A stretch of 56,723 nt of DNA from Candidatus Eiseniibacteriota bacterium (GCA_035259005.1 DATFWU010000242.1:1-56723), one strand, 5' to 3'. Shown: positions 7,245 through 53,030, counted from the stretch's first letter. The notes: generated by a model not told the origin, from the letters alone. Made by a program: numbers and translations.

Positions 7245-13191
<5,947 letters not shown>

Positions 13192-13192
<1 letters not shown>

Positions 13193-16100
13193 CAGAAGTA
13201 GGTCCTCAAGCCGGCGGTGGCGCTGTGGATCAAGCGGTCGCCGCGCGGCGCGTGGCCGTTCCAGCTGAAGTCCAGGTTGGCGCGCTCGCGAATGCGATAC
13301 GAGGCGTCGATCTTGAAGTCGAACCAGTCCGGCGTGGTGGCGAAGCCGGTCGGGAAGAGCACGGGCACGGTGTCGCCGCGCACCCGGCCCCAGCGCGCGA
13401 GCCCCTCGAGTCGCGTGCGGTTCCCCACCGAATAGAAGAGGTGGGGACCAGCGCGCAGGGCCGACAGGGGCTCGGTGCCGGGAGCGCTCGCCAGGTCCCA
13501 TGACGTGATCCATCCGAGCCGCACGTTCTCATGAAGGAAGCGCGTGCCCTCGAAGGAGACACCCGACTCGCGCAGCTCGCGCGGCACCGCGATTCCTCCC
13601 GCCTGCTGCAGACCGTCGCGGCGCGCTCCATGCGTCGATCCCTCGAAGAGCCAGCGCGTGCCCGCATGCCAGCGCAGGCGGCCCTCGCCCGTCCACGCGG
13701 CGACCAGCGAGGACGCGCCCTGCAGGGCCCGGTCCGTCGTGCCGGTGCGCTCGAGACGCGTGTAGACCTCGAGCCCACCCGCGGGCTTTTCGATCTCGAT
13801 CCGGCCGAGCCAGCTGGTCTGCGTGTAGTTGGTGTCGGAAGCGCTCCTGCTCGGCAGGGCCACGAAGTCGGCGAGGCGAAGCTCGCCCTGGCGCGAGGCC
13901 GAGGACTGGGCGAGCCCCGAGACGTGGAGCGAACGCCAGCCTTGCGCGTCCCCGGCTCCGCCCCAGGGCCTGAGATCGGCGCGGTAGGACAGCCCGGCGC
14001 GCGCCACGGGCACCGCGGTCCCGGCGTTTTCTCTATCGCGCACGTCGTAATCACCCTTGCCCACGAAATTGCCGAGCGAATCGTAAGCGCCCGCGCCCGC
14101 TCCCACGTGCACGATGGAGCGCGTGCGCAGGTAGGAGAACTCGGACGTCCAGTCGGCCGAAGCTTCCTGCGACCACATGCGTCCTGGCGTCTGTTGGTGG
14201 AGTCGCGCGTAGCCGTTGTCGACCCGCCCGGGCCCTGCCGCTCCTTCCGTCCAGCGCCGGCTCGCGCCCAAGCCCCCGCTCACGCCCTGGCTAGGCGCCG
14301 CGTTCAGCGAGAAGCGCAGGTCGCGCGCCAGTCGCGGCAGTGCAAGATCGGGCGAATCGTCATGGCGCACCGAGTAGCCACCACTCCACGACCACACCCG
14401 CTTCACCCCGGAGAGTCCCGCCGTCCACGTGCGATAGGAAAGATTGGACGAGTCGGCGCGCCCCGGGATCACGCGCTCCTCGCGATCGAAGGAGAAGGAC
14501 GGACGGACGAGCGGGGTTCTCGTCCACGCCGCCTGGTAGACGATCTTGTCGCGACGGCCGTGGTCGGGGCCCTGGGCGAGCGAGTCGGGAGCGTCGTCTT
14601 GGGAAGCCACGTGGTCGATGCGGAGCTGCTGCAAGAGCGCCCCCGTCCACGACGCCGTGCCGCGCAGGCGGCGCGACGAGAATCCGTCCTCCGCGTCGAG
14701 CCTGCCGGCTTCGCCTCCCACGGCGAGGCCGCCGAGCACGTAACGGAGTGCTCCCGTCGCCACCGAGCGCCCGGTCAAAGGATCGCGCTCGTCGGTGCCC
14801 CAATCTTCCTGGAAGAACGCGCTGTCCTGGCGCGCCGGGGCGAAGAAGCGCGGATCGCGCCGATTCCAGTCCAGGTTCGCCTCGAGACGCCCGCGCGCCG
14901 CACCTCCCCAATAGAGCGTGGGCGTGGCGGCGATCGACGCCTGCCCCGCCGAGCCCTGGGTGCCGCCATCGCCCAGGTCCGACAACCGATTCGGATCGGA
15001 CGTGCTCCCCGCCACCTCGCCGCGCACCGCGAACCAGGACAAGGGCTGGTAGCTCGCCCCCCCGCCCACGATGCGGTTCTCGCTCGGCAGAGCGAGCTGG
15101 CGGCCGGCCACGAACGCACCCTGGCCGGCGCCGACGTAGCGATACGCCGCGGATCCATCGACCAGCGTCGACTCGGCGTAGGCGCCCTGCCCCTGACCCC
15201 GGCTCACGAACTGCACCTGATACGCGCCCAGGTCGCGGCCCGCGTAGGCGTAGTGCGAGCTGCCCAGGCTATCGGCGACCGCGTTGTAATCGCCGATGCC
15301 GGCCACACCGCCGGGAGCGATGGCGCGCGTCGGATCGTTGCCGGCATGGGCGAGAATCAGCCGGTCGGCTTCCGAGATGGTTCCGATCAGCGGGCGGCTG
15401 GGATCGTCGGATTCGCGGAAGCTGTGGCCGAAGAGCTTCCAGGCCCCGTGCTCGGCCTCGCCGGTCATGGCCAAGGCGGAGCGCCGGTACGCCGTGCTCG
15501 CGATCTCGTAGTCGACCGCGATGCGCGAGGCGCTCGTGATCGGGCGGCGCGAGGTGAAGGTGAGGCGGCCGCGGTCGTAGTCCATCGAGTAGTCGGCGGC
15601 CTCGCCGCGCTGCATGCGCTCGCCGTCGAGCCACACGCGCTCGCTCGACGGCACCACCGGCCGTCCCGTGGCTCCGCTCTCGTCGGGCAGGAGATAGGGA
15701 CCCTGCTTTCCTTCCTCGCCGCGGATCTCGTGGCTCGTGAACTGTCCCTTCTCGAGCGCCACCGTGGTCTGTCCCGAGAAGCCGCCGCCGTGGGCCATGG
15801 CGCGCACCCCGGTCAGCTCGCGCGTCAGCGCGGCGAAGCTTCCGCCCTGGTGGAGGAACGAGAAGTCGCCGAGCGTAGCCGAGGCGTGCGGATTGCGCAC
15901 CTCGACCAGCACGCGGTCGAGCTCGGAGAGATCGAGCGTGCCGCCGGTCTCGGTGAGGCTCGAGTTCTGGTCCGAGAGGATGGCGGTGAACTCGGTGCCG
16001 CCGCCGAGCTTGCCGGTGGTGGTCACGTCGAGGGCCTGGCGCAGGGCGGCGTCGCGCTGCGAGCCGAACTGCACCGAGACCGACTTGTTGCCCGAGAAGT

Positions 16101-16680
16101 GCACCTCGGCGTCATCGGAGGCGGTAGACGGCTTGCCACTCGCCGGGCTCGTGGCCGTGGTCGCGACGGGCGCGGCCGTGGCCGAGGCCAAGAGATCGGG
16201 TGCGGCCGCCAGGCTCGTGTCCGGCGTGCCCCACGTCGGCTTCACGCCGACGAGCCCGGGCAGGCGCACGGGCAGCACGCGATAGCGCACGCGGAGGGTC
16301 TCTCCGGGGTCGAAGGCGGAGAGCAGACGGATGGTACCCGGCGCGCGATCGAGAACGTAGTCGGTGCCCGCGATGAGAAATCGTGAGCCCACCCACACGG
16401 AGTCGCCGCCCTGGGCCAGGAAGGCGTCGGGAAGCCGGTAGAGCGCGGTAAGCGGCAGCAGAGCGACCGAGGCGGTGCGCAGTCCGGCGGTGCTCAGGGA
16501 ATCGGGAGCGATGTCGATCGTGGCGCCTCGCGCGGGCGGCGCCAGCAGCGCTGCCAGGCACGCGAGCACGCCCCCCGCACCCAAAGCCAGGCGCGGACGG
16601 CTCGTCTTAGTGCGCGGCCGGAGTGCCGCGCTCCTCGAGATGGAAGACTTGCACACGATGGTTGTGCGTATCCGCGACAT
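13192..16680 (-). CDS. Very large predicted outer-membrane beta-barrel protein, function unknown
   Basis: The ORF is open from 16722. Candidate starts are ATG 16722, ATG 16680 and GTG 16656, all overlapping the 3-prime end of the NHL gene. It has a signal-like segment RLALGAGGVLACLAALLAPPARG. The body is rich in alternating Gly/Ser/Tyr/Arg. The aromatic C-terminus is ...AGLRTYF. The stop shares one base with the Omp85 ATG. Confidence 0.6.
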
Positions 16681-17665
16681 AGATTCGGCCGGCCCGGTCG
16701 ACCGCCACGGCGCTCGGGCCATCGAGCTGACCCGGGCGTCCGCCGCGTGCGCTCACACGCGCGAGCACGTTGCCGTCGGCCGAGAACACGGTGAGGCGTG
16801 AGGAATCGGACTCGCACGCGACCACTTGCCCGTCGGGCAAGAGACCCACGCCCACGCGGCCCGACGGGTCGGGCCCGGCCAAAGGATAAGCCCGCAGGAA
16901 TCCGCCGAAAGAATCGAGCGCCTGGACGCGACCGTTGCCGCCGTCCCCGACGAACACAGTGCCGCGGCCGTTGACCACGATTCCCGTCGGGTGCTTGAAG
17001 CGTCCCGGCTGCGAGCCGAACCCGCCCAAGGGGCTCCAGCCGCCGGCCAGCGGGTTGAGAACGATCAGGCGATCGGTGGACTGATCGCTCACGTAGAGAT
17101 ACCCCGTGGCCTCGCCGCCGATTCCGGCCGGACGCACGTTTCCCAGCGTCACGCGGGCCTCGTCGCCGTTGAAATCGACGAAGATGGCCTGGAACTGACC
17201 GTCCAGATCGTACTGGGCCACGCGGTCGTTCTCGCCATCCAGGACGAAAAGCCGCAGCCCGCCGCTCACGAACAGGTCGCGCGGCTTGTCGAAGTGCCCG
17301 GTCTCGAAGCCGAAGCCGCCGAACTCACCGAGGAAGACGCCGGCCGGGTCGAAGCGCTCGACCCGGTTGTTGCCCGTGTCGGAGACGAAGAGGCGGCCGA
17401 GGTCGTCCACTGCCACGCCTTCGGGATAGGCCATCTGGCCCGGCCCCGAGCCGTATGTGCCGACCACGCGCTCGAGCTGGAGGCGGTACGGAAGCTGGCT
17501 GTCGGGACCGGTCTCGGGCGCCGGCGCCCCGCGAGGCTCGCCGCTCGTGCCGTGAATCGCCCTCGCCGACGCGCAGCCGCAAAGTCCGAGCGCGGCGAGG
17601 GTGACCACGAGCGCGATCGCGGCGGTCGAGGCGTGCCGCCCGGCGAGGCGCGAAGCGAAGATCAC
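16607..17665 (-). CDS. NHL-repeat lipoprotein (beta-propeller)
   Basis: GTG at 17665 (residue 180 of the track ORF) overlaps the upstream stop as GTGA. It has the lipobox LAALGLCGC and repeated NHL-like units (GVAVDDLGRLFVSDTGNNRVERF, GIVVNGRGTVFVGDGGNGRVQAL, AVAVDRAGRIYVADTHNHRVQVF). Confidence 0.75.
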   Translation of the reverse strand: MIFASRLAGRHASTAAIALVVTLAALGLCGCASARAIHGTSGEPRGAPAPETGPDSQLPYRLQLERVVGTYGSGPGQMAYPEGVAVDDLGRLFVSDTGNNRVERFDPAGVFLGEFGGFGFETGHFDKPRDLFVSGGLRLFVLDGENDRVAQYDLDGQFQAIFVDFNGDEARVTLGNVRPAGIGGEATGYLYVSDQSTDRLIVLNPLAGGWSPLGGFGSQPGRFKHPTGIVVNGRGTVFVGDGGNGRVQALDSFGGFLRAYPLAGPDPSGRVGVGLLPDGQVVACESDSSRLTVFSADGNVLARVSARGGRPGQLDGPSAVAVDRAGRIYVADTHNHRVQVFHLEERGTPAAH

Positions 17666-18498
17666 TCGAGCGGGATCACCCAGGCGAGACGGTGATGGAG
17701 ATCGAGCGGATGCTCGGGCGAGGAGGCGATGGTCCACTCCACGGGCCCGAAGGCGAAGCCCTCGCCGCTCGTGGCCGCGCGGGCCGCCACCTTGGAGGAG
17801 GCCGGCGCCATGCGCGACGACACGATGGCCGCCACGATGCGGTTCACGATCAGGCCGGCGGCGGCGAAGCGCGCGCGCTGGTAGGCGCGCTCGCTCGAGC
17901 GGCGGAGATCCTGATAGTGAGCCCACTGATCCAGGTCTTCCCAGTTCCACGAGTTCGCGCCGGTGAGCGAATGGGTGTTGATGTAGGCGGTGTAGCTCGC
18001 GAAGTCGCCGTAGTACAGGGCGGCGGCGTTGCGATAGACCACGAGCCGGTTGTACTCGTCGCTCGACTGATAGCTGCTGACCAGCTTGCGGTAGTTCTCG
18101 TCGTGCTGCGTGAGATCGATGCCGGCGTAGATCTGCGCCGTCTGCTCGAACGAATGCGTGCGCATGCTGCCCTGCCCCGACGAGACGGCCACCGTCGTCC
18201 ACAGGCTCGCTTCGACTACCAGGAAGGCGAGGCCCACGTTGCGATGACCGGCGTGCAGCGCTCCCCAGCCCGGGAGCACGAGCGAGCGGCCCACCTCGCC
18301 GAGATTGCTCGGCTTCTTCGACTCACTCTCCGAGGCCGGAGCGACCGTTTCCTCGGCCAGCCGCTGCGAGAGATCGGCGGCGGGAAGCGGCAAGGCGAGC
18401 GAAGAAGATGGCAGCGCACGCGCGGCAGGAGCGCACACGAGCAGCGCGGTGGAAACGAAAAGGGCCCGCCACGCACGGGGTCGGAGCCAAACGGTCAT
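17662..18498 (-). CDS. Hypothetical secreted/membrane protein
   Basis: 278 aa, ATG at 18498, signal-like N-terminus MTVWLRPRAWRALFVSTALLVCAPAARA. One hydrophobic span follows an LPGWGALHAG motif. I recognise no family. Confidence 0.55.
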   Translation of the reverse strand: MTVWLRPRAWRALFVSTALLVCAPAARALPSSSLALPLPAADLSQRLAEETVAPASESESKKPSNLGEVGRSLVLPGWGALHAGHRNVGLAFLVVEASLWTTVAVSSGQGSMRTHSFEQTAQIYAGIDLTQHDENYRKLVSSYQSSDEYNRLVVYRNAAALYYGDFASYTAYINTHSLTGANSWNWEDLDQWAHYQDLRRSSERAYQRARFAAAGLIVNRIVAAIVSSRMAPASSKVAARAATSGEGFAFGPVEWTIASSPEHPLDLHHRLAWVIPLE

Positions 18499-18501: not shown

Positions 18502-19230
18502 CTAGAAGCGCTGGGTCAGGATCGCGAAGGCGCGGGCATGGCGCCCGGTGCGACCGTCGAGCTTGAGGGTGAGACCGTCTCCCACGCGAACCTGGTTCAA
18601 GCGGAGGGCACGAAGCGCGTCGGCCATCTCGAGGACGGGGCCGGTGGCGCGAGCGAGCGTGCGCACGATGGAGATGCTCGAGCCCTCGCCCATCTTCTCG
18701 AGGCTCGCCTCGTTGCGCGAGCCGGCGGCGCTCCAGGCGACACCGGAGTGGGCATCGAGCGTGCGCGACGCGGAAAAGGCGGTCGCGCCCCAAGCGACGT
18801 TCGAAGCCTCATCGATCGAGAGCACGCGCACCGCGGTGGTCGCCACCATGCGCTGCTCGCGCTCGCGCCAGCTCTCCGACGACGGCGCCTGGATGCTCTC
18901 CTCCCAGGGCGTCGGGCTGTCGTCGGCATGCGAGTACGAGTAACGAGCGAGGGCTTCGACTCCGCGATGCATGAGGGCGCGCTCGGACGTGCCGCGCATC
19001 GGCGCCGGCATCACGACACCACTCGTGAATCGTTTCTCGGTGGAAATGCTGTTTGCGGAAAGCGTCGAGGCCACCACCCGAAGCTCGGGTGACGAGCCGC
19101 TGGTCAGGCTATTCATGGAAAGAAGGGCCGGCGTGGCCAAGCCCGATCCGGCGTGGGAGGCGACCGCCGATACGGACAGAAACAGGGGGATTCCTAGAAG
19201 GGCGCCGATCCGAGATGTCGAAACGCGCAT
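18502..19230 (-). CDS. Hypothetical secreted protein with aromatic C-terminus (possible small OMP)
   Basis: 242 aa, ATG at 19230, signal-like start MRVSTSRIGALLGIPLFLSVSAVASHA, ends ...AILTQRF. It is the first gene of the operon and is preceded by a promoter-like site. Confidence 0.5.
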   Translation of the reverse strand: MRVSTSRIGALLGIPLFLSVSAVASHAGSGLATPALLSMNSLTSGSSPELRVVASTLSANSISTEKRFTSGVVMPAPMRGTSERALMHRGVEALARYSYSHADDSPTPWEESIQAPSSESWREREQRMVATTAVRVLSIDEASNVAWGATAFSASRTLDAHSGVAWSAAGSRNEASLEKMGEGSSISIVRTLARATGPVLEMADALRALRLNQVRVGDGLTLKLDGRTGRHARAFAILTQRF

Positions 19231-19357: not shown

Positions 19358-22300
19358 TCAATGCAGAACGCCCAGCTGGACGACGTGGGTCTCCTTCTTG
19401 CCCGAGGCCTCCACGTCCAGGCGGGCCATGTACATCCCCGGCGCGGCTCGGGAAGGATCCCAGATGAGAGCGTTATCGGACCGAACGCCCGGCTGCGTGA
19501 TCGTGTCGATGAGGCGCCCGCTCGGGTCGTAGATCGTGAGCGTCGCCTGGCCCGGCTCCGTCAGCTGGAAGGCGACTGTCATGGGGCTCTTCTTGGCCGG
19601 GTTGGGATAGCACTTGAGTGAGCCCGAAACCAAAAGCCCAGACCCCGTCACGCCCCCCGAAGTCGGGGTCGTCACCAAGGAAAAGCCACGTCCTGGCCCA
19701 CCGCCCCAGACCGGCCACACGGCCCCGTTGTCCAGCGCCTTTTCCGGCTCGAAGGCGTAGAGCAGGGAGTCGGCATCGCCGATCAGGACCTCGAGCTGAC
19801 CGTCGCCGTCGACATCGAGAAGGGCCGCGCTCCCTTGCTGCCCGGCGCCGGTCCCGAGGGGCCATCCCGGCAGCACCTTCTTGTCCTTGTCGAGCGCCAG
19901 GAGTCGACCCGATCCCGTGGCCATCACGATCTCGGGCGTCGGCGAGGCGTCGAGGTTGGCGAGCACGGGGGAAGCCATGCTCCCGAACGGCTCGGGGTCC
20001 ACTCCCTTGGGCCAGCCCGGCGTGGCGCTCCCGCTCAAGTTCCAAAAGCCCACGCGCCCATCCTGCGTGGCGATCACCACCTCGTTGAATCCGTCGCCAT
20101 CCATGTCGCCGACCGCCACCCCTTTGGTGAGAGGCGCGTTCAGCCCGTGAAGATCCACGTGCTTGGTCTCGGTCGGCGCTTGCGCGAAGCTCGGAAAGTA
20201 GATCGTCCCCTTGCCCGTTCGCTGGTCGAGAGCCACGACCTCGGGCAAATCGAAGGCACCGCCCGCCTGGGTTCCCGACGGGCCCGCGTTCAGCTCCGCC
20301 CACGCGAGAGTGGGCCGCCAGCCCACCGGAAAAGGCGCGCTCGCAATCGGATTGCCCGCCGAGCCTGCGATGAGGACGTTCCCGAGAGAGTCGGCGGCCG
20401 CCACATAGTCCGTGTCGTATGCCGGAACACGGCAGCACGCCAGGAACGTGATCGGCGCAGGGGTGCTCTTCGATCCCGCGAGGGCGCGTAACGCGGCCCG
20501 TGGGATTTCGACGCTCGGCGGGCTCAGATTGGATGGAATGAGGTAAAGCCGTCCGCTTCGCGTTCCGATCAGAATGTCTTCCGAGAGGCCGGTCCCCTGC
20601 GTGGCGGGAGCGATCACCGGATTCGCCGTGATCCATTCCTTGCTTCCGTCCGAGGCGGTCAGCTGCATCGGGAACCCGGGCGAGACATTGCCGTTTCCAT
20701 CCAGCGCGACGATCCAGGAGCCGTCGGTCGGCCAAGCTCGATCGTCGATCTGCGCCGGGTCCGGATACACCGCGACCGCAAGGTTGCCGTAGGTGGCGCG
20801 AGCCCACTCGGCCACCGGCGAGAGCGGCGCCGGCGCCTGGAAGAGGATGGCGTCCGTTCCATTCGCCTTCACGGCGTGGATGGCCGAGTCGCCCGCGGCG
20901 AACACGACACGGCGTCCCACCCCGGCGCCGAAATCCAGGACCAGAGGCTCGACGCCTTGGCGCGGCGGATGCACCTTGATGGGCCAGCCAGGCAGACGCC
21001 AATCCGGGGTGACGCGGACCCTCATGGACGCCTGCGTGGTGTCGAGCACGTCGATGACCACGTGCGGGTTGGTGCGTGAGTTGGTGAGCAAGGGCGGCCG
21101 GCCGTCGGGGGCGAGCCGTGTGCCGTTGCCGACGAACCAGGGATCGAGCGGCGAGCCCAAGGGATAGGGTGACGTGAAGTCGCCGAGGTCCTGGAGCCCG
21201 TCGCCTTCGAGGATGTGCAGGCCGCGGCGCTTGGGATTGCCGTTGAGCGTGTAGAAGCCGTCGGCGCGCCGACCCGGCGGATCGAATGCGACCACCGACT
21301 CGTCCACCTGCCACGCGATCACTCCGTAGCCCGGCAGCAGATAGTCGTACTCGTTCGGATCCTCAGGACCGGGACCCAAGATGACGCCGGTGGTCGAGTC
21401 GCGCACCAGGGTGAGGCTGTTGTTCCGGTTCAGGTCCCCCTGCCGGTTCTCGAGCAGCAGGTATTCCTCGGAGTCGAGCGGAACTTTGATTGCCTTGTCT
21501 TCGAGGAGCGGCGACTTCAAGGAATCGATGCCCACCGTCTCCACTTCATCGGGAAGGTCTTCGTAGGCGAGATGGCGCTGGTACGGATCGGCGAGCGGCG
21601 GCACGAGTCCGATGGCGAAGAAGCTCTGCTGATTGGCGCCCGTGCCCGTCACGACCGTCGTTCCGGTCAAGTTGCCCGTGTCCATGAGCGTCCAGTAACC
21701 GCACACCGGAAAGCCCGAGAAGACGTCGTAGACGTCGCGCCAGCCGAAGATATTGTGCCCGTGCTCGTGCGCGATCACCGCGTTCAAGGCGGCGAAGTTG
21801 CCATCCTGGTTCGCGGTCTCCGGCAAGATGGCGGCCCCGAATACATAGAACGTCGAATCGGCGACCGGAATCGAGAGCGTCGAGTCGAGCCCGATGGTGA
21901 ACGTCGGGATGTCCTTCGGCGAATCGAGCTTGGTGTCGCTCTGCAGGTCGGAGCCCGCGTGCACGATGGCGATGCGGTCGAACTTGGCCCACGGAATGTT
22001 CGTGTCCTGCGTGTCGGCGGCCGCAAGCATCTCCTGGAACATCTTGTAGGCGATCGGGAACACGTCCTGCGAGATCGTCCACGGACCGAAGTCGTCCATG
22101 TCGTTACAGTGATAGGCCGTGTCCGCCTTGGGATAGATGTCGTACTGGACCACGAGACGGTGGTGGAACTCGGCGTCAAAATAGCGGCTCAGCGCCTTGA
22201 AATGCGAATCGTAGAAGGCGCGATTGTGCGGCGGCGCATCGACCGGCGGCGGATTGGCGCCTCCGGTCGTGAGATCGAACTTGCCGTCGCCCGTGGTCTG

Positions 22301-22813
22301 GGTTCCCGCGCGGTCGTGCAAGAAGTCCATGCGCAAGACGAGGATGCGCACCGTGTCCTGGCCGGGCACGCTGGCGGTGCCGACCGCCTCGGGCGCGCGC
22401 GCGCGGGCCAGCTCGCCGAGCGAGATGGCATCGACCGCGCCGGTGCGCAGGATCTCGGCGCGGCGGTTGGGCGCTCCACGCGCCGGAATCCAGCTTCCGT
22501 TCGGGCCGCGACGCAAGATGCCGAGGTGGGCCCCCGGCATCATGAACACGTCCTGGGTCACGCGTCCTGCGGCCTTCTCGGCCTGCAGGAGCTTCACCCG
22601 GTCGCGCAGGGCCTGGGCGCGGACGCTGTCCCGTGCGGCACCGCCGCGAAGCAGGAACGAGGGGAATGGCGTGGCCGCCGCGACCGGGCCCACGAGGCAC
22701 AGCACGCCGAGCGCGCCCGCGAGCCAAAGCAAAGGCCGCGCCCCGAGGGGGCGCGGCCCGAAAATAATTCCGAGTCGACCGGACAAGGACGCGGCTAGGT
22801 TAGAAGCGCGCAC
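19358..22813 (-). CDS. Secreted HExxH zinc metalloprotease (M6/InhA-like architecture) with FG-GAP repeats and T9SS-type C-terminal domain
   Basis: 1151 aa with the motif AVIAHEHGHNIF. FG-GAP/VCBS-like units are present (DMDGDGFNEVVIAT, DVDGDGQLEVLIGD). The C-terminal ~85 aa read CYPNPAKKSPMTVAFQLTEPGQATLTIYDPSGRL...PGMYMARL...VQLGVLH. The GTG at 22813 overlaps the porV-like stop; an alternative TTG lies at 22786. Confidence 0.75.
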   Translation of the reverse strand: MRASNLAASLSGRLGIIFGPRPLGARPLLWLAGALGVLCLVGPVAAATPFPSFLLRGGAARDSVRAQALRDRVKLLQAEKAAGRVTQDVFMMPGAHLGILRRGPNGSWIPARGAPNRRAEILRTGAVDAISLGELARARAPEAVGTASVPGQDTVRILVLRMDFLHDRAGTQTTGDGKFDLTTGGANPPPVDAPPHNRAFYDSHFKALSRYFDAEFHHRLVVQYDIYPKADTAYHCNDMDDFGPWTISQDVFPIAYKMFQEMLAAADTQDTNIPWAKFDRIAIVHAGSDLQSDTKLDSPKDIPTFTIGLDSTLSIPVADSTFYVFGAAILPETANQDGNFAALNAVIAHEHGHNIFGWRDVYDVFSGFPVCGYWTLMDTGNLTGTTVVTGTGANQQSFFAIGLVPPLADPYQRHLAYEDLPDEVETVGIDSLKSPLLEDKAIKVPLDSEEYLLLENRQGDLNRNNSLTLVRDSTTGVILGPGPEDPNEYDYLLPGYGVIAWQVDESVVAFDPPGRRADGFYTLNGNPKRRGLHILEGDGLQDLGDFTSPYPLGSPLDPWFVGNGTRLAPDGRPPLLTNSRTNPHVVIDVLDTTQASMRVRVTPDWRLPGWPIKVHPPRQGVEPLVLDFGAGVGRRVVFAAGDSAIHAVKANGTDAILFQAPAPLSPVAEWARATYGNLAVAVYPDPAQIDDRAWPTDGSWIVALDGNGNVSPGFPMQLTASDGSKEWITANPVIAPATQGTGLSEDILIGTRSGRLYLIPSNLSPPSVEIPRAALRALAGSKSTPAPITFLACCRVPAYDTDYVAAADSLGNVLIAGSAGNPIASAPFPVGWRPTLAWAELNAGPSGTQAGGAFDLPEVVALDQRTGKGTIYFPSFAQAPTETKHVDLHGLNAPLTKGVAVGDMDGDGFNEVVIATQDGRVGFWNLSGSATPGWPKGVDPEPFGSMASPVLANLDASPTPEIVMATGSGRLLALDKDKKVLPGWPLGTGAGQQGSAALLDVDGDGQLEVLIGDADSLLYAFEPEKALDNGAVWPVWGGGPGRGFSLVTTPTSGGVTGSGLLVSGSLKCYPNPAKKSPMTVAFQLTEPGQATLTIYDPSGRLIDTITQPGVRSDNALIWDPSRAAPGMYMARLDVEASGKKETHVVQLGVLH

Positions 22814-23834
22814 TCAATGAGAACTTCTTCACACGATCCAGCTTGGTGCCGGTGTTCTTGTCCTCGGCCTGCGGAATGCTCGCGAAGTCGACACGCAGGA
22901 TCTTGTAGCTCAAGCCGAGACCATAGGTAGGATCCGAGATCGATCCGTCGGTGTCCTGCACGTAACCACCGCGCAAGGCCACGCTCACGTCGTTGGCCTT
23001 GTACGAGAGCTCGCCGCCGCCGTTCCAGATCGGCTTGCCGTAGCGCCGGCGCACGGCGCCGCTCGTATCCACGATCTCGCCCTTGACCAGGAGCTGGTTG
23101 AAGTCGCCGACGAGCAGGAACGCGACGCTGTTCTTGTCGTAGACGGTGCCGGCCACGCCCATCTTGAGGTTGCGGTAGATGGGATCCTTCACCGGGTCGC
23201 CGCCCGCCTCGGGCTGCACGAAGGTGATGTCCGGACCCATGTTCTGGAGGGCGGCTCCCACGTTCACGCGGTTGCCCGGGACCTTCCACAGAGCACCCAG
23301 GTCGAAGGCCACGGTGCTGCCCGTGCCGGCGCCCGGGGGAAGGAAGGGAAAATCAGGCGAGAGCTGGACGCGCACGTACTTGAAGCCCACCCCGATGCCG
23401 ACCTGGTGCGCCAGCTCGACGCCGTAGGTGATGGCCGGCGAGAACTCGTAGGAGCGGAAGCTGCCCAGGTCCTGGCCCGAAGGATCGCGCGCCTCGCTCT
23501 GCCCGTACGACAGATAGATGAGGCTCCCGCTGAAGGTCCCCACGTTCTTCACGGGGAACGCCATGGAGAAATAGTCGTGGAAGACGTCCGAGGCCAGGTC
23601 CGGGACCAGCTGGGCGTGCGTCATGGACGCGTCCCGCTTGGTCAGGAAGGCCAGGCCGCCCGGGTTCCACCATGCACCGGTCGCGTCCTCGGCCAGAGCG
23701 CAGTAGGCCTCGCCCATGGCGTTGGCTCGGGCCGTGGGCGGGATGGAAAGGGAGATGGCGGCCGTTTGAGCCAGAGCTTCGCCTGCCCCGAGCGCCAAGA
23801 GGGCGCTCAGTAACGCTCGAACAAACCACTTCAT
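22800..23834 (-). CDS. porV: PorV/PorQ-family-like outer-membrane beta-barrel
   Basis: ATG at 23834 with GGAGG 7 nt upstream (residue 27 of the track ORF). Signal peptide MKWFVRALLSALLALGAGEALA. The N-terminal motif ARANAMGEAYCALAEDATGAWWNPGGLAFL resembles the PorV/PorQ signature. The C-terminus is ...FSLSARF. It is immediately downstream of the C25 peptidase. Confidence 0.65.
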   Translation of the reverse strand: MKWFVRALLSALLALGAGEALAQTAAISLSIPPTARANAMGEAYCALAEDATGAWWNPGGLAFLTKRDASMTHAQLVPDLASDVFHDYFSMAFPVKNVGTFSGSLIYLSYGQSEARDPSGQDLGSFRSYEFSPAITYGVELAHQVGIGVGFKYVRVQLSPDFPFLPPGAGTGSTVAFDLGALWKVPGNRVNVGAALQNMGPDITFVQPEAGGDPVKDPIYRNLKMGVAGTVYDKNSVAFLLVGDFNQLLVKGEIVDTSGAVRRRYGKPIWNGGGELSYKANDVSVALRGGYVQDTDGSISDPTYGLGLSYKILRVDFASIPQAEDKNTGTKLDRVKKFSLSARF

Positions 23835-23969
23835 CGGGTTCCTCCGAAAGGGGTGCCTCGAAATCGGGTTTCCCCGGATAGTACACCGCTCGGGCCTCTG
23901 GGGTCGCTCCATTATGGCCAGACCCGCGGGCGGGGTCCAAGCCCCCGGCCCGAGTGCGGTTTCAGCGCT

Positions 23970-26900
23970 TCAAGGGATGATCGCCAAGCGGCCTTCCAGA
24001 TCCGACGCCTCTCCCCCGGCCAGGGGATGGATCACCACACGATAGAGGTAGACCCCGGCCGCCGCCTGCCGCCCGGAATCGTCCTTGCCGTCCCAGCCCA
24101 CCTGGAGCTGGGCCGGGCCGCCCGAAGCCCACAAGCGCCGGATGAGCTGGCCGTTGACCGTGAACACGCGCACCTCGGCGTTCGAGGCCCCGGGTAGGCC
24201 GTTGATGACGAACTGGGTGCCGTGCCCGGCATGGAAGGGATCGGGGAAGTTGAGCACCTGCGCGAACGGCAACCCCCCGCCCGAGTTCACGTCGAAGTCG
24301 AGCGAGGCCTGGCTTCGGTTTCGCCGTCCGAAGATGCCGGCAGCGAAATTGTCGGATGCCGAAACCGAGATCGTGTGGCCGCCCGGAGCCAGTCCGGGGA
24401 GGTCGAACCCGACGCTGCCACGCGTGTACGAGCCCGGGTCGTAGCGGAAGCTCTCGGTCAGGTCGTAGCGCGCCTTGTCGTCGATCGTGAGCGTGATCGC
24501 GTTGGGAATCGAGTGACCGGTCAGGTTGATGCCGTGCGCATCCTCGAGCACCACGCGCAACGGCGCGTCCGGCGCTTCCACGGTCTTTCCATCCTCGAAG
24601 CGCAGCGTGATCGTGGGCCCGGTGGTGTCGATCTCGGAAGGCTGGCCGTCCACCATGTGAAGAGTCAACGACCCGACGCCGTCGTCGCTCGCGTTCTGCA
24701 CGTACACGCGCGCCTTGGCGCGCGGACCGAGCAGGCCCTCCAGCGGCACGTAGAAGCGCGCCGTGGCGCGGCCGTCCTTGATGGGCAGATCGCCGTGGAA
24801 CACGCTGCCCGGATTATAGGTGTAGGGGTAGATGGATCCGCCGCGCGCGATCTCGAAGGTGTCGACGGGCGCCGAGTCCGTGACCCACACGCTGGCCGTG
24901 CCCTGGTAGCTGGTCGCCACCAGCGAGCTCGTCGTGTCGTGCGAGGTGTGCACCTCGGCTTCCACGCGCACGCGACGCCCGCGCGGCAAAGAGTCGACGA
25001 GCGCCTGCCCATTCTCGTCGTCGAACAGCGCCAGGCGCACGTCGAGGTGCGGGATCGCCAGCCGCGTGCCGGGATCGCCCTGCAGCGTGTACTTGCGGTC
25101 GTTCTCGGTGGCGTCGATGCGGCGCTTGATGTTGTAGCACGCCTGCCCGAGCGTGTTGTCGTAGCCATCGGGCGTGAGCACGAAGAGCTGGCGGAACAGC
25201 TCCTGGTTGAGCGACGAGTTCTGGCTCGAGTAGGCGAGATCGGACGCCGACAGGGTCGCGATCGCGCCGCCCGAGGCCGACTTCACCAGGGCCTCGCCCA
25301 ATCCCACGATCACCGGATCGTCGAACTTGCCCACGTCGCACGAGGCGGCGATCACGAAGGTGAGCTTGTCCGAGTTGGTGAGTGTCGGCACGTCCGAGAT
25401 GATGAAGGCGTTCTCGTCGGCCATCTTGAACGGGTTCCCGTGGCCCACGAAGTTCCACAGGACGCTGCCCTCGTTGAGCCGCTTCTTGATCTCGGTGCTC
25501 ACCGCCGGCTTCTCGGTTCCCGAGCCGAACGGGTAGCGGCTCATGTAGACCTTCTGGCGGTCGATCACCGGCGGCAGCACGGCGTCGAGCAGCTCGCTCT
25601 GGTACTGGTGCGTGCCGTACAGCCCGTCGGGAACTGGATTCCCGGCGGGGTCGAAGCCCTGGTAGAAGTCGTCGGCCACGAGCAGCGCGCGGTTGCGCCA
25701 TTCGCCGAAGGTGGGCTTGGTGTCGTAGGGGATGATCTTGCCGTCGACCAGCTCATCGGCCTCGGCCGCGGTGCCCGCGGGAAGCCGCCCGATGATGAAG
25801 TCGGGGATGTCGTCGGGCGAGAACGTCTGCCCCGGCAGCGGCGGATCGATGGGGCCCAGATCGATGTCGGCGAGCCAATCGTCGGTCATGTACTGGCCGG
25901 CGATGTAGCCGTGCACGTAGGACGGCACGAGGGCCGGCGGATGGCCCGGCGTGGCCAGGTTCAGGGTGTTCTTGAAGTCATACGAGGCGTCGCCGAAGAA
26001 GCACACGTACTGCGGCACCGGATCCCAGCGCTTGGACGCGTCATAGAGGAAGTTGCGGACCGCCGTCGGATCCATGCGCCCGCCCGCATACCAATCGAGG
26101 ATGTCCGAGATGCGCACCACCTTGGTGCGCGCGTTCGGGATGCCGGTCAGGATGTGCGAGCGCAGGTCGGCCAGGCGCTGGGCCTCGGGCTCGAATTCGT
26201 CGTAGACGATCACCAGATAGTCGGCGCCACTCGGGGCTCCCAGATCGCGCACGTCCGCGTTCTCGAGCGTGGGGCGGCGAAAGTGAGAGAGCGAAGCGCC
26301 GTAGTAGAAGCGCGGGCCGCTCAAGACGTCATCGAGATAGACGGCCTTCCCTCCCGTCGTGTCGCGCGTCGTCCAGCCAGTCAGCTCGACCGGGCTCACC
26401 GGATCGCTCACGTCGAGCAGGCGAAGCCCGGCGGCGGCGTTGGGCGTGAAGGCGGCCACGCCGTACTGCACGCTGCCCGTAGTGTCGGGGCTCGCGAAAT
26501 CGATGACGTCGTTCACCGCCTGGAAGCGGCGGCGGAAGTGCAGCTCCCAGAAGAGAAACGCCTGCGTGTCGCGTCGGTTCGGATTGGGCGGATCGACCCG
26601 GAACGGCGCCTGGAAGACGAAGCGGTTGCCGAGCTCCTTCATCCACACCGCGGTGGTGTCGATGTCCATGCGGAACTTTCCGCTCCAGCTCTTCTCGGCG
26701 ATGGGCACGCCGTTGAAGCTCGTGTCCAGATAGTGATCCTGCAGAGTCCTCGGCGGAGTCGTGGCGGGCTCCGCGGAAGTCCCCCAGAAGCGCGCATAGA
26801 GCCGCGCCGGCTGAGCGGTCTGCGCGCCTGGTGTGTCGACGAAGAAGTTCTGCGCTCCCGATTTGTCGTAGAACTCGATCCAGGCCCACTGATCCCAAGG

Positions 26901-28289
26901 ACGCGTGGGATTGAAGTCGTACATGTTGGGCCGGTACTGGAAGTCCTGCTCGAGATGGACGCGCGCGGCGTAGTCGGGCGCCGGCCACGCCGTGGGATCC
27001 GTGGGCGCCACGCCCCGCGTCGCCCAGCGCCGGGCCGGCGAGGCCAGATTGGCCTGCCAGGTCAGCCAGTAGAAGTTCTTGGTCTCGTAGGGATGATCGA
27101 GCCAATAATTCGGCGTCGTCCCCGGACCCTTGAAATCGTCGAGCCAGTCGGAGGGCGGAAGACCGTAGAAGAGAAGGTAGTCGCCCGGATCGAAGCGGCC
27201 ATCTCCTCCGTCCACGACGCCGATCGCGACCTCGTTGAGGCCACAGGTGTCGCAGTAGCTGTCCTCGTCGAGGATCGGCGGGCCGCCGCGCGTGAATACG
27301 CGCAAGGACGAGCTCGAGATTCCGGAGAGCGAGATGCCGATCGACTGCAAGTCCTCATAGGAAACGCGCTGGATGCCCTTGCCGTCGACCGCGAGCTTGA
27401 CCCAGCGAGGCGAGACGTCGAAGCCCACTGCCGTCTGTGCATTGGGCGACCACGAACGCACGGCCCCCATGGCGCGCGCGCGCTCGCGGGCGTCGGTGCG
27501 CACGCGCTCGCCGAACGAGCGCCGGAACGAGCGCGCGCTCTCGTAGTTGAGGAGGGAGCTCTTGTAGATGGGCTCGAACGCGCCCTCGACCGGCGGTCGC
27601 GAGCCGAACGTCGACCCGCCGGAGAAACGCACCGTCACCGTGAGCTTGGAATAGACGGAGAGCCGCCCGCTCGCCGGATCGTAGATCGCGGGGCGCAGAC
27701 GGATGGCCGCCACCCGCTGCGAACGGAGTCCGGTGATGCCGGCCAGCTCGGCGACGGGATAGTCCTTTGGCGCCTCGCGGTACGCCTTGCTCTCGAGGAA
27801 GGGCGCCACCCGGTCCGGGTAGGCGCCGTGGATCTTCGAGGGATCGGGTGTGGCGCCCGCGCGCTCGAGATCGATCGTGGCCAGGCGCGGTGCCAGCCGC
27901 ACGGTGCCGTACTCGACGGGATCGAGACCGGCTCCGTCCACCGCCACGCGCGCACCGTCGGGAATCCCGATCCACACCACGCGCACCGGCAAGCCGGGCG
28001 CTCCGCTCTCGCCACCGAGCTGGAAGTTCGGAATCCCCATCTCGACGATGTGCTCGTCGGGCTGTCCGACGACCGAGAAGATGGCCGGGGAGACATCGAC
28101 TTCGAACGCCACGCCGGCGGCATCCTCGCGCACGACGTGGAATCCCTCCGCCTCGTAGGGCGAGTCGTCGGCCGGGGCCTGGGCCGCGCAAGCGACGGCA
28201 AAGACGCAGGCGACTCCGAAGGGCGCAAGGAGCCCCCGGACCCCCGGGCGGCGCCTTGCGCCGTCCGTGGCGAGCAAGCGAGCCAGCAC
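23970..28289 (-). CDS. porU: Peptidase C25 family protein, PorU-like (candidate T9SS C-terminal signal peptidase) with its own CTD
   Basis: 1439 aa. The catalytic-dyad context is FVGHGNPF ... VIAASCDVGKFD, with His and Cys 34 residues apart. The C-terminus is FPDPFHAGHGTQFVINGLP...VRVFTVNGQLIRRL...AGVYLYRVV...RLAIIP. GTG start at 28289. Confidence 0.75.
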   Translation of the reverse strand: MLARLLATDGARRRPGVRGLLAPFGVACVFAVACAAQAPADDSPYEAEGFHVVREDAAGVAFEVDVSPAIFSVVGQPDEHIVEMGIPNFQLGGESGAPGLPVRVVWIGIPDGARVAVDGAGLDPVEYGTVRLAPRLATIDLERAGATPDPSKIHGAYPDRVAPFLESKAYREAPKDYPVAELAGITGLRSQRVAAIRLRPAIYDPASGRLSVYSKLTVTVRFSGGSTFGSRPPVEGAFEPIYKSSLLNYESARSFRRSFGERVRTDARERARAMGAVRSWSPNAQTAVGFDVSPRWVKLAVDGKGIQRVSYEDLQSIGISLSGISSSSLRVFTRGGPPILDEDSYCDTCGLNEVAIGVVDGGDGRFDPGDYLLFYGLPPSDWLDDFKGPGTTPNYWLDHPYETKNFYWLTWQANLASPARRWATRGVAPTDPTAWPAPDYAARVHLEQDFQYRPNMYDFNPTRPWDQWAWIEFYDKSGAQNFFVDTPGAQTAQPARLYARFWGTSAEPATTPPRTLQDHYLDTSFNGVPIAEKSWSGKFRMDIDTTAVWMKELGNRFVFQAPFRVDPPNPNRRDTQAFLFWELHFRRRFQAVNDVIDFASPDTTGSVQYGVAAFTPNAAAGLRLLDVSDPVSPVELTGWTTRDTTGGKAVYLDDVLSGPRFYYGASLSHFRRPTLENADVRDLGAPSGADYLVIVYDEFEPEAQRLADLRSHILTGIPNARTKVVRISDILDWYAGGRMDPTAVRNFLYDASKRWDPVPQYVCFFGDASYDFKNTLNLATPGHPPALVPSYVHGYIAGQYMTDDWLADIDLGPIDPPLPGQTFSPDDIPDFIIGRLPAGTAAEADELVDGKIIPYDTKPTFGEWRNRALLVADDFYQGFDPAGNPVPDGLYGTHQYQSELLDAVLPPVIDRQKVYMSRYPFGSGTEKPAVSTEIKKRLNEGSVLWNFVGHGNPFKMADENAFIISDVPTLTNSDKLTFVIAASCDVGKFDDPVIVGLGEALVKSASGGAIATLSASDLAYSSQNSSLNQELFRQLFVLTPDGYDNTLGQACYNIKRRIDATENDRKYTLQGDPGTRLAIPHLDVRLALFDDENGQALVDSLPRGRRVRVEAEVHTSHDTTSSLVATSYQGTASVWVTDSAPVDTFEIARGGSIYPYTYNPGSVFHGDLPIKDGRATARFYVPLEGLLGPRAKARVYVQNASDDGVGSLTLHMVDGQPSEIDTTGPTITLRFEDGKTVEAPDAPLRVVLEDAHGINLTGHSIPNAITLTIDDKARYDLTESFRYDPGSYTRGSVGFDLPGLAPGGHTISVSASDNFAAGIFGRRNRSQASLDFDVNSGGGLPFAQVLNFPDPFHAGHGTQFVINGLPGASNAEVRVFTVNGQLIRRLWASGGPAQLQVGWDGKDDSGRQAAAGVYLYRVVIHPLAGGEASDLEGRLAIIP

Positions 28290-28297
28290 TCGCGGAC

Positions 28298-28465
28298 TCA
28301 GAAACGTTCGGCCTGGTCCACCAGCATCACCGGGATGTCATCCACCACCCGGTAGCGCAGACGGCAGGCCTGGCAGGTCAGCATCGAAGCGTTGGAATCG
28401 TATTCGAGATCCCCGCGGCAGACGGGGCAGATGAGAATGGAGAGCAAATCCGCGCTCAGCGCCAT
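28298..28465 (-). CDS. Trm112/UPF0434 (YcaR-like) zinc-ribbon mini-protein, 55 aa
   Basis: Not in the track (<60 aa). Hand translation gives MALSADLLSILICPVCRGDLEYDSNASMLTCQACRLRYRVVDDIPVMLVDQAERF*, which has two CxxC pairs and the IPVML motif typical of the family. RBS GAGGA lies upstream of the ATG at 28465. Its stop is 8 nt from the PorU-like start. Confidence 0.75.
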   Translation of the reverse strand: MALSADLLSILICPVCRGDLEYDSNASMLTCQACRLRYRVVDDIPVMLVDQAERF

Positions 28466-28603
28466 GATCGGCGTTCCTCTACTCGTTCAGGTCGTGGCAA
28501 ATGCCCTGCGAGGGCCTTCGGGCGATGGTCCGTGATGCGGCAGGTAACCAGAACGGTTGAAGCCTCCTACAGGGCGCAGGATGGGCAGGCTCGAGTCGCA
28601 ATC

Positions 28604-28633
28604 AGGATAGGATTCGCGGGGGGATTCCGTCAA
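28604..28633 (-). promoter_or_regulatory. Sigma70-like promoter TTGACG-N18-TATCCT
   Basis: Minus strand: -35 at 28633..28628 and -10 at 28609..28604, in the 200-nt gap between accA and the Trm112-like ORF. It leaves a leader of about 135 nt containing a GCCCT-CGC-AGGGC hairpin. Confidence 0.4.
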
Positions 28634-38039: not shown

Positions 38040-38096
38040 AGGCGATCTCCACGAAGTGGGCTCGGGCACTCCCCGGAAGGCCCGAATCCGCCATCG

Positions 38097-40535: not shown

Positions 40536-40543
40536 TCGTCGCG

Positions 40544-40583: not shown

Positions 40584-40616
40584 GCCGCTCGCTCCGCTAC
40601 GCGCCCCATTTGCAGC

Positions 40617-42190: not shown

Positions 42191-43891
42191 TTAGCGGACC
42201 AGGACCGCCTTTGCTGTTGTTCCGCTTCCTGTAGCCCGCAGAAAATAGATGCCGTTCGCGAGTCGGCGTCCTGCGCCGTCCCGTCCATCCCAAACAAATG
42301 AATTGCCACTGCCGAAGGGCGCGTCGAACCGGGCGAGCAGCTTCCCTGCAACATCAAAGACCTGAAGGCGAGCTTTTTCGGGATGGTCACCGGCGTAATG
42401 AATCCTCCAGCCACCGGCGACCTCCTCACAGCGGAGCGAGTTCATCTCTGGATTCCGCACGGCGGCGCTGCCAGCAGTCTTGAGCTTTGCCAAGAAGTTC
42501 ACCGGCCGTCCCTGCACGCGCCCCGTGAGCACGAGATGTCCGCTGGCAAGCGCCTGCTCTTCTTCTGCACCCGGGGCGCGGAACCGAACATGCCAGCGCC
42601 CGCGACCGATACGCTTGATCTCCTCGGCGACCTGCAGGTCCTTCGCCGTGGCGCAGTTCATCATGCGCACAGAACCCGGTTGGATCTCGCCGTCGTCATC
42701 GAGTGTGACCGAGCCCCAGTGCCAGGGAGCGTTGCGCTGACCGGGCGCCGCGCCGTCCCATGCGAAGTCCGCTGGCTGCTCGATGCGCAGGAAGTACGCG
42801 TCCGAGCATGCGCCAATGGGAGCCCCACCAAAGGCGGTGCTCTCCGCGCCCGTCGTCACGAACATCTCGCCCGTACACGGGCAGTAGGCCCCGGCGGCGT
42901 CGTATCGGGCTCGCGATCGTTCTGGCCCGGCCAGAAGAAGGTCCCAGGTCTGCGAGGCAACGTCGAAAGCCCAGAGAGAATCGCTTGCCACCCCTCCCAG
43001 GCCATCCCGCCCCCCATACTGCAGGAAGATCCCCGAGACCGGGTCGTAATCGGACAAGGGCCAGGCCTGCCGCGCCGGACTTCCTGCGATCGCTCCCAAC
43101 CCTTGCCACGCTCCGTTTCGAGGGTCGAAAGCCCAGAGGGAATGGGGGGAGAGAGCCGCAGACTCCAGAAGGGTGGTAGAGAGCTCTGGAACCAAGTTTG
43201 GTGAGTCAAAGCAGCCTCGCGGGGGCGCTCCACCTCGAAGCAGAATCACTCCTCGCTGCGGGTCGAAGGGGGCGGCTGCCGATGTTGAACCGCCCGGAAG
43301 ATCACGCGGCGCCGCCGCCCCCCTCCACCGCAACTGCTCCTGATCGAAATGCGCGAAATACCAGTTGCAGGTGTTCGTTCCACACGCACCGAAGAACACC
43401 CAGGGATCGCCCGATCCCGTGTCGACGCTCATTCCGGAAAAGACTCCGGATGGAGCTCCGGGAGGTCCTGACGCGACGTGCTTCCATTGCTGTAATGACG
43501 CATCAAATCTCCACGGCCCGTCTGCGCATGTGTAATCCGGCTCCTTCCCCGGGACGTCGCCTCCGTACAGGTAGAAACCGTCCCCGCTTGCGTCAGCTGC
43601 CATACAGTGGGCAAGGCGTGGACCGGGCCAGGGATCGGATTTCGAAACTGACTCCCAACGCCCCGAAACGAGATCGTAGGACCAAAGGTCCTCGGTGGCA
43701 CGCAGGTCAGGGTCAGCGCTGGCGCCGGCGTAAAGAAGGATCTCCTGCCTCTTAGGGATCAGCACGGCACGCGCCACCACCCGCGGGCCACCGGGAAACG
43801 GCGCGGCTTCACGAAGGGTCTGGCCGAGCGCGATGACGGGAAAGAGGAGCGCGACGAGCGAGAGGAGAAGGTACCAGGGGATTCGCGCCAT
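42191..43891 (-). CDS. Kelch/beta-propeller repeat protein with T9SS-type C-terminal domain
   Basis: 566 aa with signal peptide MARIPWYLLLSLVALLFPVIALG and Kelch-like units (DLWSYDLVSGRWESV, GPRLAHCMAADASGDGFYLYGG). The C-terminus is ...RLQVFDVAGKLLARF...FVWDGRDGAGRRLANGIYFLRATG...AVLVR. Confidence 0.75.
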   Translation of the reverse strand: MARIPWYLLLSLVALLFPVIALGQTLREAAPFPGGPRVVARAVLIPKRQEILLYAGASADPDLRATEDLWSYDLVSGRWESVSKSDPWPGPRLAHCMAADASGDGFYLYGGDVPGKEPDYTCADGPWRFDASLQQWKHVASGPPGAPSGVFSGMSVDTGSGDPWVFFGACGTNTCNWYFAHFDQEQLRWRGAAAPRDLPGGSTSAAAPFDPQRGVILLRGGAPPRGCFDSPNLVPELSTTLLESAALSPHSLWAFDPRNGAWQGLGAIAGSPARQAWPLSDYDPVSGIFLQYGGRDGLGGVASDSLWAFDVASQTWDLLLAGPERSRARYDAAGAYCPCTGEMFVTTGAESTAFGGAPIGACSDAYFLRIEQPADFAWDGAAPGQRNAPWHWGSVTLDDDGEIQPGSVRMMNCATAKDLQVAEEIKRIGRGRWHVRFRAPGAEEEQALASGHLVLTGRVQGRPVNFLAKLKTAGSAAVRNPEMNSLRCEEVAGGWRIHYAGDHPEKARLQVFDVAGKLLARFDAPFGSGNSFVWDGRDGAGRRLANGIYFLRATGSGTTAKAVLVR

Positions 43892-52894: not shown

Positions 52895-52964
52895 GGTTGA
52901 TCCTTTCGCCTCACGGGCCAGAAGCTCTTTCTGCTGGAAGCTTCATCGTAACTTCTGGCCGCGT

Positions 52965-53030
52965 TCATGGTGCGCTTCGGCACCCGTCCAAGCTCCTGAG
53001 CCACACTTCAAGCTGATTCCAACTCGGCAT
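52965..53030 (-). CDS. Mini-ORF 3 of the SWNQLE-WLRSL family (21 aa)
   Basis: ATG at 53030, with an in-frame TAA four codons upstream. It reads MPSWNQLEVWLRSLDGCRSAP*. Its stop lies 70 nt upstream of the DUF4279-like start. Confidence 0.35.
   Translation of the reverse strand: MPSWNQLEVWLRSLDGCRSAP

Follow-up and report, generated by a model that had tools for sequence, protein, structure and literature searches.

Probable genes for cargo sorting in type IX secretion by a Candidatus Eisenbacteria bacterium, and the larger conserved gene cluster to which they belong

In the system for type IX secretion (T9SS) of Porphyromonas gingivalis and Flavobacterium johnsoniae, binding of the C-terminal domain (CTD) of the cargo by PorV, delivery of the cargo to PorU, removal of the CTD by PorU with release or anchoring of the cargo, and retention of PorU itself at the surface via PorV and its own CTD are established (PMC4804311, PMC5562754, PMC10994853). 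PorU acts as the sortase that removes the CTD (PMC4804311), and PorV binds the CTD and docks onto SprA (PMC10994853). SprA is the largest known single-chain barrel, with 36 strands, and PorV docks at its lateral opening (PMC10994853; bioRxiv 10.64898/2026.03.07.710327). The system is described as specific or exclusive to Bacteroidota in many reviews and recent primary papers (among them PMC12365241), while PMC11285876 allows that T9SS genes are possibly present in other phyla of the Fibrobacteres-Chlorobi-Bacteroidetes (FCB) radiation. Literature searches linking T9SS to Eisenbacteria, Latescibacteria or Krumholzibacteria found nothing in the library searched. Here, a DNA stretch of 56,723 nucleotides (nt) from a Candidatus Eiseniibacteriota bacterium (GCA_035259005.1, DATFWU010000242.1:1-56723; referred to below as the window, ~70% GC) was analysed, and genes around porU and porV homologues were found whose products very probably form the cargo-sorting (attachment) part of a type IX secretion route in this Candidatus Eisenbacteria bacterium.

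A preliminary description, made from the sequence alone, had proposed a T9SS sorting module at this place, composed of a PorU-like protein, a PorV-like protein and a CTD-bearing cargo, and every proposed test that was run came out in its favour. The four genes that it named all lie within 19358-28633 on the minus strand (protein lengths in amino acids, aa; ORF, open reading frame):

28298..28465, minus strand: Trm112/YcaR-like mini-gene for a 55-aa zinc ribbon, 8 nt upstream of porU
23970..28289, minus strand: PorU-type C25 cysteine peptidase, 1439 aa (NF033707, Peptidase_C25)
22800..23834, minus strand: PorV/PorQ-family outer-membrane barrel, 344 aa from the ATG at 23834 (NF033709; longest ORF starts at 23912)
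19358..22813, minus strand: HExxH metalloprotease of M6-like (immune-inhibitor-A-like) type; FG-GAP propeller, type-A T9SS CTD (TIGR04183)

The C25 protein is a real PorU orthologue with an intact catalytic dyad. It scored 547 bits against NF033707 'T9SS sortase PorU' (cut-off 420) over model positions 6-1094 of 1095, 256 bits against Pfam Peptidase_C25 with the whole model covered, and 28 bits against Pfam Propeptide_C25. The domain order is a signal peptide, a Propeptide_C25-like N-terminal domain, the C25 catalytic domain, immunoglobulin (Ig)-like domains and a C-terminal sorting domain, and the tail passed the FlgD_ig model (33.3 bits, cut-off 27). The 1439-aa peptidase with GHGNPF…ASCDVG, 34 residues apart, was present as described, the dyad residues being His950 (GHGNPF) and Cys984 (ASCDVG).

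The closest known protein is PorU (PG0026) of P. gingivalis, the T9SS C-terminal signal peptidase/sortase (PDB 6ZA2), which was the best relative of the full protein among solved structures (166 bits) and the only strong PDB match. The GHGNP...ASCD segment of the window protein aligns with GHGGP...ATCD of 6ZA2, and the aligned Cys of the latter is, we take it, the catalytic Cys690. Both proteins have a C25 domain in which His and Cys align, Ig-like domains towards the C-terminus and their own CTD, and in both organisms porU stands beside porV. The window PorU is the longer of the two (1439 aa, against 1156 in the solved chain 6ZA2), with ~290 additional N-terminal residues that include the Propeptide_C25-like domain, unlike the P. 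gingivalis protein; also unlike the P. gingivalis case, its contig carries a second PorU paralogue and the genome is of ~70% GC. That the peptidase carries its own CTD had been read as a difference from Porphyromonas; this point falls, since P. gingivalis PorU also carries a CTD of its own (PMC11285876). Among solved structures, the full protein matched no gingipain catalytic domain and only, weakly, gingipain pro-domains; the catalytic segment alone scored 33 bits against PorU and 18 bits against the gingipains Kgp and Rgp, so that the proposed grouping with PorU rather than with gingipains was upheld by score comparison. The window PorU is predicted to function as a CTD-cleaving transpeptidase.

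The porV start lies 135 nt after the porU stop (57 nt with the longest ORF start at 23912), and the porU-porV adjacency of Bacteroidota was thus confirmed at this locus. An exact look-up of the longest porV ORF (370 aa) gave nothing, the recorded form being the 344-aa protein that starts MKWF. This form is identical to GenBank HKA25472.1, 'PorV/PorQ family protein [Candidatus Eisenbacteria bacterium]'; the identical protein also occurs on short soil-metagenome contigs, and the nearest genomes are Candidatus Eisenbacteria metagenome-assembled genomes (MAGs). The protein passed NF033709 'PorV/PorQ family' (186 bits, cut-off 90) and Pfam PorV PF19572 (51 bits, cut-off 27), and it contains the conserved N-terminal motif on which its first description as a barrel with a PorV/PorQ-like N-terminus was based, a description that these results support. 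It did not reach the PorQ equivalog (62 bits, cut-off 220); it is nearer to PorV than to PorQ, and stands outside both of these Bacteroidota-trained equivalogs. It belongs to a clade of ~330-aa proteins of Eisenbacteria, Latescibacteria and Krumholzibacteriota MAGs that are already named as PorV/PorQ family.

An AlphaFold2 (AF2) model of PorV was computed from an alignment of 38 homologues (predicted local distance difference test, pLDDT, 89; predicted template-modelling score, pTM, 0.83). Its top Foldseek matches were F. johnsoniae PorV chains, 8gl6_F with a template-modelling score (TM) of 0.77 and 6h3i_F with 0.74, whereas FadL, TodX and TbuX gave 0.50-0.57; the sequence likewise missed the FadL/Toluene_X cut-off (19.6 bits, cut-off 29.7). 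The barrel is therefore closer to PorV than to FadL, as had been proposed. The closest known relative is PorV (LptO), the shuttle barrel that binds the CTD in F. johnsoniae and P. gingivalis (PDB 6H3I_F, 8GL6_F): the predicted fold superposes on F. johnsoniae PorV at TM 0.74-0.77 and the N-terminal motif is common to both, the lengths being 344 aa in the window and 402 aa in the deposited F. johnsoniae protein (345-367 residues in the modelled PDB chains).

The M6-like ORF that follows is 1151 aa at its longest, with a likely start at TTG 22732, as called on public contigs. The earlier description of an HExxH protease ending in a sorting-type CTD was correct: the HExxH site is AHEHGHN at residue 349, and the CTD passed TIGR04183 Por_Secre_tail (28.6 bits, cut-off 23). 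The protease family models were approached from below (TIGR03296, 37.7 bits, cut-off 110.8; PF05547, 20.3 bits, cut-off 22), and many homologues carry PF05547, under the names 'M6 family metalloprotease-like' or 'immune inhibitor A'. NCBIfam represents the three kinds of protein seen in the window by NF052324 'PorU2', NF052325 'PorV2' and NF052323 'T9SS-dependent M6-like inactivated metalloprotease'; the window trio scored far under these cut-offs (103 vs 450, 38 vs 325 and 160 vs 600 bits, respectively), and the match of the M6-like protein to NF052323 (T9SSA_dep_M6i) was made up of four stretches. The window protease is not the inactivated form, because the HExxH is intact and was kept in all orthologues examined (loci L003-L007, L014 and L015). 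The NCBIfam names and consecutive accession numbers suggest that a PorU-like/PorV-like/M6-like trio is a recurring arrangement.

Five CTD-bearing ORFs are present in the 57-kb window. Besides PorU and the M6-like protein, they are:

42191..43891, minus strand: Kelch beta-propeller protein with a CTD-type C-terminal domain (Kelch families; FlgD_ig 31.3 bits, cut-off 27)
52893..54956, plus strand: 687-aa secreted protein with a type-A T9SS CTD (PF18962 29.3 bits, cut-off 27; TIGR04183 27.5 bits, cut-off 23)
55194..56723, minus strand: second PorU paralogue, truncated by the right edge of the window, with 509 C-terminal aa inside

The Kelch tail scored 104 bits against a local CTD profile; this score is circular because the tail is one of the five sequences from which the profile was built, and FlgD_ig is the independent evidence. 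The second PorU paralogue scored 264 bits against NF033707 (model positions 589-1095), is 40% identical to the first over 508 aa and keeps the dyad as GHGNPF...AAGCEVG. It has no adjoining PorV in the window and is convergent with the gene of the 687-aa CTD cargo. The part of the window in which the paralogue and two CTD cargo genes lie (40.7-56.7 kb) looks like an integrated island or a variable region: a tRNA-Glu gene (40617-40690, plus strand) stands exactly where GC drops from ~0.70 to 0.60-0.65, and a truncated tyrosine recombinase (44274-44858) comes after it. As a separate observation, an S8 subtilase with an FG-GAP propeller (35109-38126, minus strand) has a last ~90 residues that resemble a CTD by eye, and a CTD was detected on this tail by no model tried.

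The assignment to T9SS cargo sorting rests directly on the orthology of PorU and PorV, the intact dyad, the CTDs and the conservation of the gene cluster across phyla. By analogy with Porphyromonas and Flavobacterium, from work on which every step of the scheme is carried over, proteins that bear a Sec signal peptide at one end and a type-A CTD at the other would reach the periplasm, and the cargo would pass the outer membrane via a translocon. The PorV barrel, of the 14-strand type, would bind the CTD and hand the cargo to PorU. PorU, a C25 cysteine peptidase whose own uncleaved CTD would keep it at the surface by way of PorV, would remove the cargo CTD and then either release the cargo or join it to a surface glycolipid. 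The M6-like metalloprotease beside porV would be a conserved CTD-bearing cargo or partner.

Several points weigh against the sorting-module assignment. PorU's own tail scored under the TIGR04183 cut-off (13.8 bits, cut-off 23), the window PorV did not reach the PorV equivalog NF033710 (107 bits, cut-off 250), and it is ~50 residues shorter than Bacteroidota PorV proteins. On the scanned window ORFs, no model for PorK/L/M/N, SprA, PorT, PorP, PorZ or PorQ rose above its cut-off, in agreement with the earlier remark that no porK/L/M/N-like genes were visible; the sub-threshold signals were a faint local SprA match on a large barrel encoded downstream, described below, and PorZ matches confined to C-terminal sorting domains. 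The translocon and the motor would be located elsewhere in the genome.

The four genes had been described as standing behind one promoter-like site. The porU-porV unit extends beyond these four: together with them it belongs to a co-directional cluster that is conserved across phyla and reaches to an Omp85 gene at 11435. Downstream of the M6-like gene, the cluster continues as follows:

18502..19230, minus strand: 242-aa secreted protein at a variable cluster position, its function not assigned by family
17662..18498, minus strand: 278-aa membrane protein, DUF5683-like (PF18935 in the L015 and L103 orthologues)
16607..17665, minus strand: NHL-repeat beta-propeller lipoprotein with the lipobox LCGC (Pfam NHL 105 bits; coding-frame signal)
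13192..16722, minus strand: giant outer-membrane beta protein of ~1150 aa that starts with a signal peptide and whose last residue is an invariant Phe
11435..13192, minus strand: Omp85-superfamily protein with POTRA, 585 aa, whose ATG overlaps the stop of the big-barrel gene (TGATG)

No family match was obtained for the 242-aa protein, whose homologues were found in 3 loci only. MAGs of Eisenbacteria, Krumholzibacteriia and Latescibacteria repeat the order Trm112-PorU-PorV-(M6)-DUF5683-like-NHL lipoprotein-~1150-aa barrel-Omp85. Among the Eisenbacteria-type loci that have the cluster, PorU identity is 34-78%, and the order was found in divergent Eisenbacteria MAGs at 35% PorU identity; it also occurs on three contigs, 4.7 Mb, 1.13 Mb and 0.3 Mb long, and in one further MAG. 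Long contigs with this cluster include ERZ25072999 ctg322053_44x_c (4.7 Mb), ERZ21869602 ctg94740l (1.13 Mb), a 2.69-Mb Eiseniibacteriota contig, GCA_041390085.1 and GCA_012975005.1. The cluster is kept in a Krumholzibacteriia MAG (GC 0.72, locus L101) and, without the M6 gene, in a Latescibacteria MAG (GC 0.54, locus L102). In both of these loci, accA and a 57-aa Trm112p gene stand ahead of porU, and Trm112p does likewise in L003. The mini-ORF is therefore to be counted as a conserved neighbour, because accA and Trm112p again precede porU in Krumholzibacteriia and Latescibacteria; the Trm112 gene accompanies porU in three candidate phyla and is not incidental. Its presence in the window, claimed as the first of the four genes, was borne out by Pfam Trm112p (45.6 bits, cut-off 22), the YcaR model PRK11827 remaining below its cut-off (34.6 bits).

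A further set of 80 metagenome loci was found via the conserved motif of the big-barrel ORF (narrower alignment A4), a sample that is biased to Eisenbacteria-like relatives. In this set, PorV-like and M6-like genes lay upstream of the big barrel in 22 of the 24 loci with at least 7.5 kb of upstream sequence, and the DUF5683-like gene in 48 of the 51 loci with enough flank; an NHL gene was near the barrel in 47/51 loci, and Omp85 was directly downstream of it in 36/37.

The ends of the cluster and the signals within it were also inspected:

28666-29670, minus strand: accA, first in transcription order, followed by a 200-bp gap
28604..28633, minus strand: pair of promoter-like hexamers (TTGACG and TATCCT, 18 nt apart) within this gap, ahead of the Trm112-like gene
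22733..22759, minus strand: GC-rich hairpin, 12 bp stem with 11 G-C pairs, then TTGCTTTGG, between the porV stop and the likely M6-like start

The promoter-like site at 28633-28604 matches at 9/12 positions. Such sites were found twice in a 19-kb scan, with 1.0 +/- 1.0 expected by chance, which is not significant; the site was given no weight because this count is close to chance. The single promoter of the first description is accordingly at chance level. Terminator-like sites showed no excess over chance in the region either (8 found, 8.7 expected). The hairpin at 22733-22759, with its T-rich stretch, could be an attenuator or terminator that splits porU-porV from the downstream genes. At the other end of the cluster, ligA comes next after the Omp85 gene. 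The S8 subtilase gene, an M23-like gene and dnaE are syntenic upstream of the cluster in other Eisenbacteria.

Beyond the cluster, histidine-utilisation genes occupy 985-7244 on the minus strand (glutamate formimidoyltransferase/cyclohydrolase, urocanate hydratase and histidine ammonia-lyase), and urocanase and an aromatic ammonia-lyase are also near the cluster in L015 and L018. The intervals 2533-3860 and 7245-9351 have a coding-like composition without a confident gene call, and the ORFs tried there gave no family match. On the plus strand, 38856-41547 contains an XrtA/PEP-CTERM-associated-like ATPase with a SPOR-like C-terminus and, past the tRNA, a CPBP/Rce1-like intramembrane protease; these two are a hint of a further protein-sorting system in this organism.

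The ~1150-aa barrel had no Pfam match, even at E<=1 over 33 relatives, and no NCBIfam family of known function was matched. Its family, for which neither Pfam nor NCBIfam has a model, comprises 5214 clusters (50% identity) at E<=1e-3; the best 150 of these 5214 representatives are all members of the family itself, of ~1100-1200 aa, and whether SprA is among the weaker matches is not decided by these 150. An AF2 model from 49 sequences (pLDDT 82, pTM 0.73) is nearly all-beta, with ~38 long strands past residue 206 and two inserted beta domains. A single closed barrel is a tentative reading of this model, because the strands were counted from the secondary-structure string and not from coordinates. 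The neighbouring Omp85 protein scored 45 bits for POTRA, with one POTRA domain detected as against the five of BamA, and 23.5 bits for Omp85. It is below the BamA equivalog TIGR03303 (78 bits, cut-off 297) and was assigned to the Omp85 superfamily only.

Two readings of these downstream genes were weighed, of which general outer-membrane biogenesis or transport is the likelier, with chances that we consider about even. Under this reading, the DUF5683-like, NHL, ~1150-aa barrel and Omp85 genes would form such a biogenesis/transport unit that travels with porU-porV, with SprA and a GldKLMN-type motor encoded elsewhere. It is favoured by the very large size of the barrel family (the 5214 clusters) and by distant members that stand without PorU/PorV, namely L016 and L092, the latter in an organism of GC 0.32 with OmpL47-like neighbours; in L017, a member stands beside a CTD-bearing subtilase cargo only. 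The house-keeping genes dnaE, accA and ligA flank the cluster in all lineages, and reciprocal searches do not tie the barrel to F. johnsoniae SprA: searches of PDB sequences with the barrel and its family profiles gave no real match and did not find this protein, nor did a profile of the barrel's most conserved motif. Weighing on the other side is the conservation of the order from Eisenbacteria to Latescibacteria, with PorV upstream in 22/24 and Omp85 downstream in 36/37 metagenome loci. The barrel matches no Pfam or NCBIfam family of known function, and hhalign of its profile did not relate it to E. coli TamB or LptD (probability ~0.1), a weak test with single-sequence templates.

The described systems nearest to such a unit are TamA/TamB and BamA. 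The window Omp85/POTRA protein has a TamA-like length (585 aa) and is translationally coupled to the ~1150-aa all-beta protein. The barrel-Omp85 gene order is reversed with respect to tamA-tamB, and the ~1150-aa protein has no TamB/DUF490 or AsmA match; it begins with a cleavable signal peptide and ends in an invariant Phe, like outer-membrane barrels.

The second reading, which we consider unlikely, takes the ~1150-aa barrel for a lineage-specific, compact counterpart of SprA/Sov (the 36-strand T9SS translocon, PDB 6H3I_A), inserted by the co-translated Omp85 protein and serving as the docking site of PorV. The deep conserved synteny with porU and porV speaks for it, as does the strand number: ~38 long strands were counted in the AF2 model of this all-beta outer-membrane protein, and SprA, with 36 strands, is the only single-chain barrel known to reach that size. 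Because the secondary-structure string is the source of this count, a single closed barrel is presumptive here too. One short motif is shared with the SprA model TIGR04189, to which a local match was found in 30/33 family members with E-values down to 1.4e-8; for the window barrel itself this match has 24.7 bits (cut-off 200) and covers only 52 residues. SprA chains ranked 2, 3 and 40 in the Foldseek search, with the highest query-normalised TM (0.22-0.27); the matches as a whole were generic large barrels at TM 0.14-0.27, with transferrin receptors, LptD and SlpA alongside SprA, and Foldseek cannot assign the family because its matches are of low TM and generic. Also set against this reading are the failure of the family profiles to find F. 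johnsoniae SprA in PDB and the members without PorU/PorV neighbours. The barrel is half the size of SprA and does not fit the description of an SprA/Sov translocon as a whole (a TIGR04189 score above cut-off, ~2300 aa, a 36-strand barrel with a cap); like the short motif, its genetic linkage to PorV is a point in common.

A third reading, in which the C25 protein is a gingipain-like secreted cargo and the barrel a FadL-type channel for hydrophobic substrates, with no sorting module at all, draws on gingipains also being C25 peptidases, on PorV being a FadL homologue and on weak FadL and UPF0164 matches of the barrel, and is highly improbable given the passed PorU-specific model, the lack of gingipain catalytic domains among the matches of the full protein, the lower gingipain score of the catalytic segment (18 vs 33 bits for PorU), and the FadL results (19.6 bits, cut-off 29.7; TM 0.50-0.57 for FadL/TodX against 0.74-0.77 for PorV).

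The window thus holds threshold-passing PorU and PorV orthologues and several CTD cargoes in an uncultured high-GC soil phylum. Their presence in this bacterium is expected for the wider lineage (the FCB radiation), and the porU-porV module is of an already known kind, because automatic GenBank annotation already names PorV; taken alone, the PorU/PorV finding is a routine extension. The more useful lead is that, in at least three candidate phyla, porU-porV is linked with an uncharacterised barrel of very large size and with a dedicated Omp85 protein, a linkage that makes it directly testable whether these lineages use a translocon other than SprA. Type IX-like secretion in Eisenbacteria, Krumholzibacteriota, Latescibacteria and their relatives through a compact ~1150-aa translocon, inserted by its own Omp85 protein, is a doubtful proposition on the present evidence; if it is true, one gene cluster would encode the outer-membrane part of the T9SS in a minimal or ancestral state, with a translocon half the size of SprA.

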